A stretch of DNA of 15,324 nucleotides. Origin: Candidatus Thorarchaeota archaeon. GTDB lineage: Archaea > Asgardarchaeota > Thorarchaeia > Thorarchaeales > Thorarchaeaceae. This document shows, piece after piece, positions 5,693-13,415 of this stretch. The stretch spans positions 134,525 through 149,848 of the forward strand of contig JBHLRS010000004.1 in NCBI GenBank assembly GCA_048882325.1, in the 5' to 3' direction. A program made the translations under genes and the position numbers. The notes beneath the pieces were generated by a model, which saw only the letters and a program-made list of their open reading frames with translations, did not search any database and was not told the origin of the DNA. The first letter of the stretch is position 1, and every line of letters begins with the position of its first letter.

Positions 5693-7138
5693 TTGAAGAT
5701 TCGCTCGGTTGCGGAGGTGGCCACCTCTGCGAATGTATATTCAGTCTACGTTCGTCAGAGGCAGGATGCTAGTACTCAGATCTTCTCGCTTGATTACGGA
5801 GACCGTCTGAGAGTGTTTGATGCTATGGGCACACTTCGGAGCACAAGAAAGTGGAGCAGTAAGGTCCGTTGTATTGCAGTAGGAGACATTGAGGGAGAGG
5901 GCAAAGATGCCCTAGTAGGAGGAGTTGGAAAGAAGATTCTCGTTGTTGATCATAGAGGCAGTCCTGTCTGGAATATCCGTCTTGAGAGCAATGTGGTTGC
6001 TTGTGATGCCAGGGATGTTGATGGTGATGATGCTGCAGAGGTAGTAGTCGGGCTTCAAAATAACCGAGTGATTCTCTACAACGATGACAAAGATGCAATC
6101 TTCACGAAGACCATGAGAGACCCTGTTGCAGACGTGTGGCTCGAGGACATCACCAAGGATACTGAACTAGAGGTTGTTGTAGCTGACAAATCAGGAATGA
6201 TAACGGTTCTCACATCTGCAGGATACCAACTGAAAGAACTCCAGCTAGGTTCACATCTGACTGTCTTTGCTGTACTCTCATTCGGCGATAGAACGCTATT
6301 CATTACTGGAGATCAATCCCCAACCCTTCGAATCTGGGACATTGATGGAAATGAGATTGCAAGACTTGATGTTGGAAACACACCAAGGGCAATGGCAACT
6401 GGTATACCTGATGACATCTCCGATGTTGCGTTTCTTGTCGTAAGTACAAAGGATCGTAAGCTTAGCTTTTGGGAGGTACAGCAGTCAGGTAAAGTAACCA
6501 GAACTGAGAAAGTGATTCTTCAACAGATTGGGTCAACCAAGACTGTCCTTTATAGACGAGCCATCAAATGTGGTAACTGTGGTGCTCCAACCTCACCCGA
6601 AGCCTCCACATGTTCTTCATGCGGTGCACAGTTAGAGATGATTGAGGAATACGTGATTGAGGAGTACATTCAGGAGAGTATTGACTCAATCACATCGAAA
6701 CATAGCAGAATCAAGCTGAAGGAACTAGATAAAATTCTACGACGAACTCTACCGAGACCTGCAGCATACAACCTGAAACGTAGTCTTCAAGCAATGATCC
6801 AGAGTGATGAGATTGAGGGTCATATCGACGGTAATGTATTCGTCAGAACGGAAACGACCAAGAAGAAAAGTACCCCGGCACTATCAAGACAGGACATACA
6901 GAAAGTGAAAGGGACTCTTCGTGAACTCCTGAGTGGCACGGACACACTTGATGTTCGTCGTCTTGAGAAGGAAACAGGAGTTGACCGCAGAATTCTGCGG
7001 CGTACGCTAATCATACTACTCGGCGAAGGAACTGTACATGGTTCTTTATCCGGGGATGAGTTCATACTTGAGGGAAAACAGGACATTAATGATTTCGAGA
7101 GAAATTTGGTGGATGAACTTACAGCTTGGAGTGGTTAG
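5693..7138 (+). CDS. Cytoplasmic beta-propeller (WD40/FG-GAP-like) + C4 zinc ribbon + two PCI/winged-helix-like modules
   Basis: About 40-aa blade repeats with acidic loops (VRCIAVGDIEGEGKDALVGG, VVACDARDVDGDDAAEVVVG, VWLEDITKDTELEVVVAD) and WD-like ends (LRIWD, LSFWE). CGNCG-x9-CSSCG lies at 6569-6625. PCI-like ends: LQAMIQSDEIEGHIDGNVFV and LIILLGEGTVHGSLSGDEFIL. No signal peptide or TM segment. TTG start. Confidence 0.7.
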   Translation: MKIRSVAEVATSANVYSVYVRQRQDASTQIFSLDYGDRLRVFDAMGTLRSTRKWSSKVRCIAVGDIEGEGKDALVGGVGKKILVVDHRGSPVWNIRLESNVVACDARDVDGDDAAEVVVGLQNNRVILYNDDKDAIFTKTMRDPVADVWLEDITKDTELEVVVADKSGMITVLTSAGYQLKELQLGSHLTVFAVLSFGDRTLFITGDQSPTLRIWDIDGNEIARLDVGNTPRAMATGIPDDISDVAFLVVSTKDRKLSFWEVQQSGKVTRTEKVILQQIGSTKTVLYRRAIKCGNCGAPTSPEASTCSSCGAQLEMIEEYVIEEYIQESIDSITSKHSRIKLKELDKILRRTLPRPAAYNLKRSLQAMIQSDEIEGHIDGNVFVRTETTKKKSTPALSRQDIQKVKGTLRELLSGTDTLDVRRLEKETGVDRRILRRTLIILLGEGTVHGSLSGDEFILEGKQDINDFERNLVDELTAWSG

Positions 7139-7186
7139 AAAGAGTTGGCGATTTCACAAATCATTCAGAGAAGAGGTAAAAGATAG

Positions 7187-11535: not shown

Positions 11536-11573
11536 TCCACCCTCATTAGCACAAACAATATGGGGTTAACCCA

Positions 11574-13415
11574 ATGGCAGAAGAAACCTGGTCAGTGGAT
11601 AAATCAAGGCTAGTCTATGGTGTAAATCGAAATGATCTTCACTTTCTTGACATAACTGAGAAGGGCAACCTCACTCTACGTCTCAGAGATCAGACCATCG
11701 CCTTTAGGGAGATAATTGAGAGAATCAAGGAGATGAATGGTGATGCTCCTGGTCACGCATCCTCTTTTACACTACGGGTGCCCCAGCTGGTGACATACCA
11801 GATCAAGAAGTTGAAAGCAGCATTCCATCGCGTAATAGACGAACTTGAGTATGGTGGTAGATTCATTGGCATTTATCCAGTCAAGGTGAATCAGCGTAAG
11901 GATTGCGTCACAGCAGTCATTCGGTCAGATACAGACTATGGACTCGAGGCTGGGACAAAGGCAGAACTTCTTCTCATCAAGAGAGTCATAGAAACCGAGA
12001 AACATCGACTCATAGTATGCAACGGAGCAAAAGATCCTGAGTACTTGCAACTAATCAAACAGTGCATGGATGATGGTTACAACATGGCAATCTCGGTGGA
12101 GTCTGTTTACGAGGCACAGTTGATTGTGAAACAGTTTCAACCTGAAAATACACACTTAGTTCTACGGATAAAGCCATACCTGAGTGTGAAAGGACACTGG
12201 TCACACTCGACTGGGAGAGATTCGAAATTTGGTTTAAGCATCCATGATCTCTATGATGTAGTTAAGCTGTTGAAGCAGGCTGGATTTGGTGAGTCGGTTC
12301 AGACTATTCTTGCACACGCTGGCTCTCAGATCACAGAGATTGAATCCTTTGAAAAATTCGGTAGACTCCTGACTGGAATATTTGCAGAACTAAGGGATAA
12401 GGGATTGTCAAAACTCGAGAGTATCGATTTTGGGGGTGGTTTGGCAATTGACTATACAAGCTCACAAGCAGCGGATTTCATGTATCGTTATGCCCATCTG
12501 TTAGTTTCAGGGGTTAATGCGCAACTTTCTGAGATGTCTAATAAATACCCGCCACCTAACATAATGATTGAATCAGGTCGAGGAGTCACAGCTCTCTCTA
12601 CTATGGTAGTGGTCGAAGCGCTTGAGGTGAGATCCATTTTTCCACCGCCTGAGCAGAGATATGTTTCTGAAGTCACAGAGGTTGATGAAAGGAAAACTCT
12701 GGAACGCATTAAAACCGCTACGTCACTTGAGGAGATTAAAGAGATTTGGAATACCTTTCATGAGAAGTATAGCGGATTAACTTTGGAAGGATTGGACTTT
12801 ATCCTTGAGCAAGAGATGGTGACAGGAAATCTCGAGAATGCAGTTAGAGCAAGACTTGCTGAGTTTAACTTAAAGTCTTACGAGATTGATGGACTTGTCA
12901 GAAGTTTTTGGCGTCCGGAGCACATTGTTATTGGTAACTTCAGCGTCTTCAACAGTATTGCGGACCATGTTCTTGTGGAACAACACTTCCCGGTCATACC
13001 TATCCAAGATCTTCATATTAGACCTCAGACAACAGTTCGTCTCGTAGATATCACATGTGATTCGGATGGTGAAATTGCTCAGTTCTATAGGCCTAAGACA
13101 GATGAAGTCTGGTTCACTAAGGATAATAGACTCTTGACAACAATTGACGGACGACTGGGTGAGGGGATTCCTGTGGGCAATTTGCAGAATGTTCGTGGGT
13201 CGTGCTTTGTGCTAGCGTTAACTGGCGCGTATCAAGATGCCATCGAGATGGACCACAATTTGCTTGGAGATCTTCCAGATGTGGACCTGCATTTGCAGGA
13301 TGATGGTCAGTGGTCGCTCTCATGGGTTACAGGTGCTGAGTCTATTGAGCACCTTTTGAAGGATGTGGGTTATGCGGATATCGAAGTTGATGACGACCCC
13401 TACATGTCGGATTAA
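11574..13415 (+). CDS. speA: PLP-dependent biosynthetic arginine decarboxylase (alanine-racemase fold, long form)
   Basis: YPVKVNQ (PLP Lys), GLEAGTKAEL, IVCNGAKDPEY, SKFGL, HAGSQI, IDFGGGLAIDY, ESGRGVTA, NFSVFNS, QHFPVIP, DITCDSDG, GAYQD...HNLLGD. All match the SpeA motif order. Confidence 0.9.
   Translation: MAEETWSVDKSRLVYGVNRNDLHFLDITEKGNLTLRLRDQTIAFREIIERIKEMNGDAPGHASSFTLRVPQLVTYQIKKLKAAFHRVIDELEYGGRFIGIYPVKVNQRKDCVTAVIRSDTDYGLEAGTKAELLLIKRVIETEKHRLIVCNGAKDPEYLQLIKQCMDDGYNMAISVESVYEAQLIVKQFQPENTHLVLRIKPYLSVKGHWSHSTGRDSKFGLSIHDLYDVVKLLKQAGFGESVQTILAHAGSQITEIESFEKFGRLLTGIFAELRDKGLSKLESIDFGGGLAIDYTSSQAADFMYRYAHLLVSGVNAQLSEMSNKYPPPNIMIESGRGVTALSTMVVVEALEVRSIFPPPEQRYVSEVTEVDERKTLERIKTATSLEEIKEIWNTFHEKYSGLTLEGLDFILEQEMVTGNLENAVRARLAEFNLKSYEIDGLVRSFWRPEHIVIGNFSVFNSIADHVLVEQHFPVIPIQDLHIRPQTTVRLVDITCDSDGEIAQFYRPKTDEVWFTKDNRLLTTIDGRLGEGIPVGNLQNVRGSCFVLALTGAYQDAIEMDHNLLGDLPDVDLHLQDDGQWSLSWVTGAESIEHLLKDVGYADIEVDDDPYMSD

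Follow-up and report, generated by a model that had tools for sequence, protein, structure and literature searches.

dCache_1 domains bind many classes of ligand (PMC8915833), and those of the dCache_1AA type are recognized by an AA_motif made up of Y121, R126, W128, Y129, Y144 and D173 in PctA numbering (PMC8915833, PMC10589655). Among the receptors with this domain, McpU and TlpQ have agmatine, putrescine, cadaverine and spermidine as ligands, with nM to µM affinity and in a negatively charged pocket (PMC6234866), while the AM_motif of the dCache_1AM type includes an upstream insertion with an R103/D133 pair and cation-pi aromatics (PMC10589655). Here we describe a four-gene cluster in a 15,324-nucleotide stretch of DNA (hereafter, the window) from Candidatus Thorarchaeota archaeon (positions 134,525 to 149,848 of contig JBHLRS010000004.1, assembly GCA_048882325.1), in which two paralogous dCache_1 receptors, A and B, lie between the gene of a beta-propeller protein and speA, the gene of an arginine decarboxylase (ADC). 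On balance, we think it probable from the sequences that the cluster encodes an Asgard-specific, kinase-less transmembrane module that would join amine sensing to a protein-binding output and to feedback on polyamine supply. Asgard archaea are the prokaryotes most closely related to eukaryotes, and their signal transduction is almost unexplored experimentally.

The genes of the cluster are:

5693-7138, + strand: propeller/Zn-ribbon/winged-helix protein (P0001), 481 aa
7187-10060, + strand: receptor A (P0002), 957 aa
10069-11535, + strand: receptor B (P0003), 488 aa
11574-13415, + strand: SpeA-type arginine decarboxylase (P0004), 613 aa

A preliminary description of the locus had reported four co-oriented genes with tight spacing, and this was confirmed, with gaps of 48, 8 and 38 nt. 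The cluster was compared with its relatives in a survey of 301 Asgard genomes at least 80% complete, from 30 families. Families, genomes and loci are cited by labels beginning with f, G and L, respectively, f1 being the family label for Thorarchaeota-titled metagenome-assembled genomes, including the 3.6-Mb genome of the window.

Receptor anatomy and predicted ligand pocket

Both receptors exceed the Pfam cut-off of 45 bits for dCache_1 (PF02743), with 65.4 bits in A and 50.5 in B. Receptor B also matches HAMP (PF00672; 33.2 bits against a cut-off of 25), and receptor A matches TPR_12 and VWA_2/VWA (VWA_2 with 55.7 bits against a cut-off of 27). According to hydropathy, two transmembrane (TM) segments surround each dCache domain, and there are none in the propeller protein or SpeA. 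The anatomy of the two receptors is:

Receptor A, residues ~7-30: TM1, from hydropathy
Receptor A, between TM1 and TM2: extracytoplasmic dCache_1 domain, from Pfam, with pocket residues Y221/E226/W228/Y229/Y248/D277
Receptor A, residues ~398-422: TM2, from hydropathy
Receptor A, residues 423-478: degenerate HAMP, from alignment with orthologues
Receptor A, residues 479-705: TPR
Receptor A, residues 706-900: VWA with an intact metal-ion-dependent adhesion site (MIDAS)
Receptor B: TM segment, dCache_1, TM segment, HAMP and acidic C terminus (IREDEE), with pocket residues Y222/E227/W229/Y230/Y246/D275

No output domain follows the HAMP of receptor B, and the ectodomains of both proteins are strongly acidic (isoelectric point of ~4.05). 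The claim of a MIDAS-intact VWA in receptor A was borne out, since the residues of the site (D727-Y-S-G-S731, T801 and D830, the latter within LTDGQDNSS) do not vary among 13 orthologues with identities as low as 31%. The proposed succession of dCache and HAMP followed by TPR-VWA stood for dCache_1, TPR and VWA, while its HAMP went undetected by Pfam in this copy of receptor A (no match at E <= 0.1). Considering that the same linker in aligned orthologues scores as HAMP with E values from 2e-4 to 1e-13, we regard this HAMP as degenerate; the HAMP Pro and the E-x-G signature are conserved in it.

Neither Pfam nor NCBIfam yielded a kinase (histidine or Ser/Thr), methyl-accepting chemotaxis protein (MCP), cyclase, GGDEF/EAL or phosphatase (PP2C included) family in the four proteins, and the NCBIfam matches to histidine kinase, MCP and phosphatase models are confined to the TM-HAMP or TPR stretch. 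With only HAMP, TPR and VWA on the cytoplasmic side, the non-enzymatic output suggested earlier is supported. In family f12, receptor B is extended after HAMP by a zinc ribbon and HEAT repeats (L033 2700-4655; also L075 and L082), so that the output is again made of interaction domains only; the propeller gene is absent from these loci. Both receptors of the cluster end in conserved tails, ...LEVGGTTxDY in A (window 10031-10057) and the acidic ...I(R/K)E(D/E)(D/E) in B (window 11515-11532), which TPR or MIDAS sites might bind as peptide ligands.

The pockets were read from HMMER alignments to PctA, PctB and PctC. Both receptors keep five of the six AA_motif positions (Y121, W128, Y129, Y144 and D173), and the position of the carboxylate-binding R126 is occupied by Glu, followed by Asp (E226 in A and E227 in B). 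Since R126 is missing, neither falls within the dCache_1AA definition. Among 26 f1 and related orthologues, this position is E, D or Q and never R or K, with one doubtfully aligned Trp. Across Asgard archaea, the B receptors linked to speA have E or D there in 10/10 cases, with E, D, Q, S or F at the same position of the A receptors, while two loci without speA (L068 and L080) show the canonical YDPRxRxWY in both receptors. SpeA removes exactly the carboxyl group that R126 would bind; therefore, the simplest reading is a switch from an amino acid to a decarboxylated amine. Because the amino-group ligands (Tyr and Asp) and the aromatic pair are kept and the carboxylate-binding Arg has become Glu or Asp, we infer that the receptors bind such an amine, be it agmatine, putrescine or another polyamine made from agmatine. 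An amine ligand supplied by the decarboxylase had already been proposed, and the charge reversal in the pocket (Arg to Glu) fits it. Our comparison of A and B with the AM_motif covered the positions in common with the AA motif. The passage from the canonical Arg of speA-less receptors to the Glu/Asp of speA-linked ones constitutes a natural series that may show the ligand class shifting with the neighboring metabolic gene.

Distribution and genomic context

When 1.84 billion representatives were scanned in full by HMMER with the HAMP-TPR-VWA part of receptor A, the scan recovered ~45 clusters (at 50% identity) of 850 to 950 aa, all with the same match position. When ten of them were scanned against Pfam, TPR and VWA were found in 10/10, dCache_1 in 8/10 and HAMP, at E 1e-5 or better, in 6/10. 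All named members are Asgard archaea (Thor-, Hod-, Loki- or Sigynarchaeota), and the same is true of every named cluster among the ~162 (at 90% identity) of receptor A. In the survey, an A-type gene is present in 94/301 genomes and 9/30 families, and SpeA is likewise present in 94/301 genomes, belonging to seven families. Outside f1, there are 20 genomes with both A and SpeA. The two genes are on the same contig in 14 of these and adjacent in 13 of the 14, the only exception having them 7 kb apart. Receptor-speA adjacency is found in either orientation (head-to-head in f22 and f5; L071, L072 and L079) and recurs in six families at 30-40% identity. A B-type gene adjoins A in 19/19 loci mapped outside f1, although it is truncated in L077 and a weak match in L069.

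Within f1, the order propeller-A-B-speA is kept in ten complete loci from eight genera, down to 38-40% identity, and the propeller gene and receptor A have the same phyletic pattern. Synteny had been set as a check on the cluster from the beginning, and it holds throughout f1 for the four genes and across Asgard families for the A+B pair. Profile searches found propeller homologues next to A+B in f9, f22, f23, f31 and two Hodarchaeales/Hodarchaeota contigs, with varying order and orientation; in one of these contigs (L067), the full four-gene order appears again at 22-36% identity. The A+B+speA loci of f14, f26, f5 and f12 have no propeller gene at the locus, and the profile search found no homologue genome-wide in four A+B+speA genomes (f14, f5 and f12). 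We thus rejected both a restriction of the propeller protein to f1, given the homologues in five more families and the Hodarchaeales contigs, and its universality, given the f14, f5 and f12 genomes that keep A+B+speA. Conversely, A+B+propeller modules are present in f9, yet SpeA was found in 0/92 of its genomes. The invariant core is the A/B pair, and speA and the propeller gene are frequent associates of it, partly alternative and partly combined. As a receptor partner, the role first given to it, the propeller protein is a frequent neighbor and was lost together with receptor A in one genome (G028, see below), but it is not obligatory, as the f14, f5, f12 and f26 loci illustrate.

An A/B pair was also found on a gene-dense Logan contig of 19-25% GC (L097; SRR12245243_11934, 1-14589), where receptor A shows an intact MIDAS together with the canonical amino-acid motif. 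The neighbors of the pair code for a full-length Drp1/Vps1-type dynamin (GTPase, middle and GED domains), PEX11, Cdc123/D123 and a GTP cyclohydrolase II of 765 aa. This contig may come from a eukaryote, from a giant virus or from an unusual archaeon. As part of a very improbable reading of the A/B pair, given below, its position beside a eukaryote-type dynamin, PEX11 and Cdc123 would hint at the presence of the family in, or its transfer to, the eukaryotic or giant-virus world. A search of IMG/VR with the L097 receptor gave no match.

By sequence, the enzyme of the window is a SpeA-type ADC with arginine as its predicted substrate. It scores below the cut-offs of the NCBIfam biosynthetic ADC model NF003763 (350.1 bits against 369) and of TIGR01273 (336.7 bits against 624). 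Pfam identifies Orn_Arg_deC_N, of the fold-type-III pyridoxal phosphate (PLP) decarboxylases; solved SpeA structures match over the whole length (E 5e-54 to 2e-48), and the motifs YPVKVNQ (with the PLP-Lys), DFGGGL, ESGRG (E-x-GR) and CDSDG are all present. The usual ADC of archaea is the pyruvoyl enzyme PdaD. We detected PdaD (PF01862) in 0/37 f1 genomes and in 16/24 other Asgard genomes; the genome G051 has both PdaD and SpeA. As far as can be recognized, SpeA is the sole ADC in f1, where it appears to have replaced PdaD. This absence of PdaD, together with the retention of speA in G028 although the receptors were deleted, indicates that the enzyme has a housekeeping role and is not a synthase dedicated to a signal; autocrine or quorum signaling is therefore no more likely than feedback homeostasis. 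The genome of the window also contains two arginase-family genes (possible agmatinases), and S-adenosylmethionine decarboxylase was not found in it. The best 120 homologues of this SpeA are Thorarchaeial sequences only and do not indicate its origin.

Most Asgard SpeA proteins end in a conserved, acidic (D/E)DPY(M/V/F) tail located beyond the region homologous to bacterial SpeA (window 13389-13412; also in L034, L070, L073-L075 and L078). We considered this tail as a mark of receptor-linked SpeA and rejected it, since SpeA proteins without receptors can have it too and those of f22 do not. The f26 loci have, after the receptors and speA, the gene of another PLP decarboxylase, a shorter one of Orn/DAP/Arg type (L070 13617-15071; L078 13155-14651). 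The receptor-adjacent speA of the f22 genome G227 (G227:C139:9290-11101) has one in-frame TGA, which could reflect a pseudogene, a sequencing error or recoding.

The cluster is preceded by a divergent gene and a short control region:

4535-5626, - strand: HDAC-family Zn deacetylase, 363 aa, divergent from the cluster
5645-5652, strand not assigned: TATA-like box (cTTATATg) within the 66-nt control region shared by HDAC and the cluster

The propeller gene has its TTG start codon ~40 nt downstream of the TATA-like box, and the ATG of HDAC is ~20 nt from the box, whose position is kept in 10/10 aligned f1 loci. Downstream of this putative promoter element of the cluster, there is a GGTG Shine-Dalgarno-like motif and then the start codon of the propeller gene, conserved as TTG or GTG. 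In every aligned f1 locus, the Shine-Dalgarno sequence of receptor B (GGAGGTG) and the stop codon of receptor A overlap. When the intergenic DNA was inspected across f1 relatives, no conserved TATA-like element was found in the 48-nt and 38-nt gaps; the absence of separate internal promoters assumed in the preliminary description is thus consistent with the single conserved TATA-like box before the first gene, and the four genes likely form one operon. A sigma-70 promoter/terminator scan gave counts at the level of shuffled sequence and was discarded, as such a scan is not applicable to archaea.

The HDAC gene is an addition to what had been noted before. Its product matches Pfam Hist_deacetyl at E 2e-72, has the catalytic domains of HDAC6 as its best solved relatives and contains the catalytic motifs GGFHHA, DFDVHHGNG and GGGY. 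It belongs to the conserved neighborhood of the cluster, being the divergent upstream neighbor in 9/10 f1 loci with the complete cluster and directly adjoining speA where the receptors are missing (L065, L066 and L089). It may act on protein or on acetylpolyamine, a role as acetylpolyamine deacetylase being possible. HDAC and the receptor operon have the 66-nt control region, with its single conserved TATA-like box, in common. In G028, an internal deletion of ~5 kb, from residue ~68 of the propeller protein to residue ~347 of receptor B, eliminated receptor A along with the propeller and most of receptor B, so that HDAC now adjoins speA. The junction is still visible (L065, G028:C7, 6985-7454) as a propeller remnant (residues 29-68) fused to the TM2-HAMP end of receptor B (347-487). 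In G031 and G245, HDAC and a divergent speA stand head-to-head, and there are no receptors. Judging by these three arrangements, the pairing of HDAC with speA looks older, and speA can be separated from the receptors.

Further upstream in the window, the gene of a multi-Fe-S protein with Fer4 domains (535-3603) and that of a RACo-type corrinoid activator diverge from one region. An N6/N4 DNA methylase gene (3635-4531) is present in some relatives only (L028 and L036) and is thus a variable insertion.

The AlphaFold2 (AF2) model of P0001, built with 21 homologues as input (pLDDT 86, pTM 0.82), predicts the following parts:

Residues 1-263: beta-propeller of 24 strands, hence six-bladed, with conserved DxDGD-type acidic loops
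C293/C296/C307/C310 (nt 6569-6625): C4 zinc ribbon, after the helix that follows the propeller
Residues 339-385 and 418-459: winged-helix domains

P0001 would be cytosolic, with no TM segment, and the charge of its winged helices is near neutral. Its Pfam matches to propeller, Zn-ribbon and PCI families are all sub-threshold. The PCI label (PF01399) that it had received could not be maintained, with 14.9 bits and E 0.03 against a cut-off of 22 and a model that has winged helices without the helical-repeat part. The fold of the propeller resembles NHL/WD40 propellers (Z of 21-25, none outstanding), and that of the winged helices resembles cullin WHB, PCI, Stn1, UFL1, ESCRT-II and MukE (Z of 7-9). 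As these matches are generic and no family stands out, no function can be read from the fold, which in the model is compatible with DNA- and protein-binding winged helices alike. An Atlas feature search with the Zn-ribbon/winged-helix half gave no usable match. The propeller also has weak matches to the BBS2_Mid, BBS7, Itfg2 and FG-GAP profiles, below the Pfam cut-offs; BBS2_Mid exceeds its cut-off (27 bits) in two P0001 homologues only (31.4 bits in G032 and 33.7 in G173). The whole P0001 model resembles an Atlas cluster of Asgard proteins with BBS/Itfg2/FG-GAP families (TM 0.50). The propellers of BBS proteins and ITFG2 are seven-bladed.

Proposed mechanism and alternatives

In the mechanism that we propose, the paralogous A and B would form a hetero-oligomer, which is probable because their genes are always adjacent and apparently translationally coupled. 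Their ectodomains would sense a decarboxylated amine such as agmatine, putrescine or another polyamine, and the signal would pass via the HAMP helices to the TPR-VWA of A, the sole cytoplasmic module. Being non-catalytic, TPR-VWA would capture or release cytosolic proteins by means of the metal-dependent MIDAS and the TPR. In Thorarchaeota-type genomes, the candidate partners would be the probably co-transcribed propeller protein, SpeA or both, and the likely purpose is feedback control of the agmatine/polyamine supply. The preliminary description had envisaged a phosphorelay-free receptor linked to an amine-making enzyme; this outline survives, while its details changed, since the propeller is optional, SpeA is a housekeeping enzyme and PCI is unsupported.

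Several observations weigh against amine sensing with feedback on the polyamine supply. Receptor A in some speA-linked loci has Q, S or F, not an acidic residue, at the R126 position. Moreover, Glu, Asp or Ser is found there in loci without speA (L076 and L083 of f9 and L081 of f31), so that the correlation between this position and speA is only partial. Among archaea, the dCache_1AM motif was found in Halobacteriota only (PMC10589655). The sensor faces outward and the product of SpeA is intracellular; therefore, sensing needs either export or an environmental source. The propeller cannot be the universal output, as it is missing from f14, f5 and f12 genomes with A+B+speA, and the Asgard counts come from related genomes, which are not independent samples.

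A variant in which the target of TPR-VWA is SpeA itself, so that tethering to the membrane and release would switch the decarboxylase post-translationally and the propeller would be a lineage-specific adaptor, seems to us unlikely. In families without the propeller gene (f14, f26 and f5), speA is the commonest extra neighbor of A+B, the adjacency survives inversion to head-to-head (L071, L072 and L079), and the acidic (D/E)DPY(M/V/F) tail of the enzyme is the kind of peptide bound by TPR or MIDAS sites. However, the tail is also found in receptor-less SpeA (L085, L086, L087 and L094) and is missing in the receptor-linked SpeA of f22, and A+B+propeller modules exist in f9, where SpeA was found in no genome (0/92). 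It is less likely still that the receptors sense a non-polyamine ligand, such as another small molecule or an amino acid bound with altered selectivity, with the proximity of speA reflecting common regulation or inherited order. The breadth of ligands of dCache_1 domains (PMC8915833) would allow it, and the pocket prediction hangs on a single position of the motif, at which certain A receptors show Q, S or F and certain lineages without speA are acidic as well. Against this, speA lies beside the receptors in six families, with identities of 30-40% and in either orientation, and the amino-group binders are kept while only the carboxylate binder is charge-reversed.

The autocrine or quorum-like circuit of the preliminary description, in which SpeA makes a secreted amine and the receptor answers by forming a complex with the propeller/Zn-ribbon protein, draws on the same synteny and pocket evidence as amine sensing with feedback, and an outward-facing sensor would likewise require a self-made ligand to be exported. 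It was weakened by the finding that SpeA is the only recognizable ADC of f1 and was retained after the receptors were deleted in G028. Archaea generally require agmatine, both to make polyamines and to modify tRNA-Ile with agmatidine. In addition, there is no exporter gene among the 11 ORFs of the window, and the propeller is missing in several A+B+speA lineages, so we consider this circuit improbable, slightly more so than a non-polyamine ligand. Finally, membrane proteins with VWA and TPR of unknown function exist in bacterial Bat operons, and receptor A could in principle be a membrane-anchored scaffold like those of BatA/BatB or MoxR-VWA systems, which would serve the maturation of complexes or the organization of the envelope and not signaling. 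Since no MoxR AAA+ or DUF58 gene was found in the window or in 30 related loci mapped, and dCache, TM and HAMP make up the canonical input and transmission unit of receptors (PMC8915833), we judge this extremely unlikely.

If amine sensing with a protein-binding output is correct, Asgard archaea would have a widespread type of receptor that works with neither phosphorelay nor second messengers and uses only interaction domains typical of eukaryotic complexes (VWA/MIDAS, TPR, propeller and winged helix).

Comparison with known systems

Our searches of the literature on Asgard Cache, VWA and signal transduction, ITFG2/BBS2, HAMP-VWA-TPR and Thorarchaeota arginine decarboxylase found no description of the module, in agreement with the earlier suggestion that the architecture was new. 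The best solved sequence relatives of both sensors (E 1e-11) are PctA, PctB and PctC of Pseudomonas aeruginosa (PMC8915833), with which they have in common the fold, the two-TM topology, the aromatic pair and the amino-group ligands (Y and D). They differ from these in the Glu that replaces Arg126, in having HAMP-TPR-VWA, or nothing in the case of B, instead of an MCP domain, and in forming an adjacent A/B pair. McpU and TlpQ, with a dCache_1 domain, an acidic pocket and the primary amine held by Tyr/Asp, exemplify the ligand class proposed here (PMC6234866). They are not among the listed sequence matches of A or B to solved structures, and unlike the Asgard receptors they signal through MCP/Che arrays.

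The eukaryotic proteins alpha2delta and CACHD1 carry dCache_1 together with a MIDAS VWA on a single chain, as receptor A does, and CACHD1 matches the sensor at E 1e-10. However, their VWA is inserted in dCache and the whole protein is extracellular (PMC8915833), whereas the VWA of receptor A would be cytoplasmic, as it is C-terminal, 300 residues past TM2 and after TPR. A special kinship of this VWA to that of alpha2delta was not seen, the match being no closer than those to ANTXR2 or ITIH4 (E ~1e-3). It is very improbable, in our opinion, that the A/B pair represents an ancient innovation of Asgard archaea, with the MIDAS VWA and an FG-GAP/BBS-like propeller forming a cytoplasmic, integrin-head-like binding unit under dCache control, and that this dCache+VWA lineage is evolutionarily connected to eukaryotic alpha2delta/CACHD1. 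P0001 has a weak profile likeness to the Asgard "BBS7/ITFG2-like" propellers of eukaryotic signature protein catalogues (bioRxiv 10.64898/2026.10.28.762692), a paper with no mention of VWA or Cache. Its fold matches to BBS/ITFG2 are no better than those to NHL or WD40 propellers, and its model has six blades.

BatB-type proteins are, like receptor A, membrane-anchored with VWA and TPR, but they lack both HAMP and a sensor domain and are accompanied by MoxR and DUF58 genes, unlike the cluster described here. The MCP-CheW-CheA arrays offer a parallel in principle, since in both cases ligand-driven HAMP motion would alter the engagement of partners by a non-catalytic cytoplasmic module. While those arrays are built on the MCPsignal domain and Che genes, the Asgard locus has neither, and TPR and VWA would serve as the scaffold.

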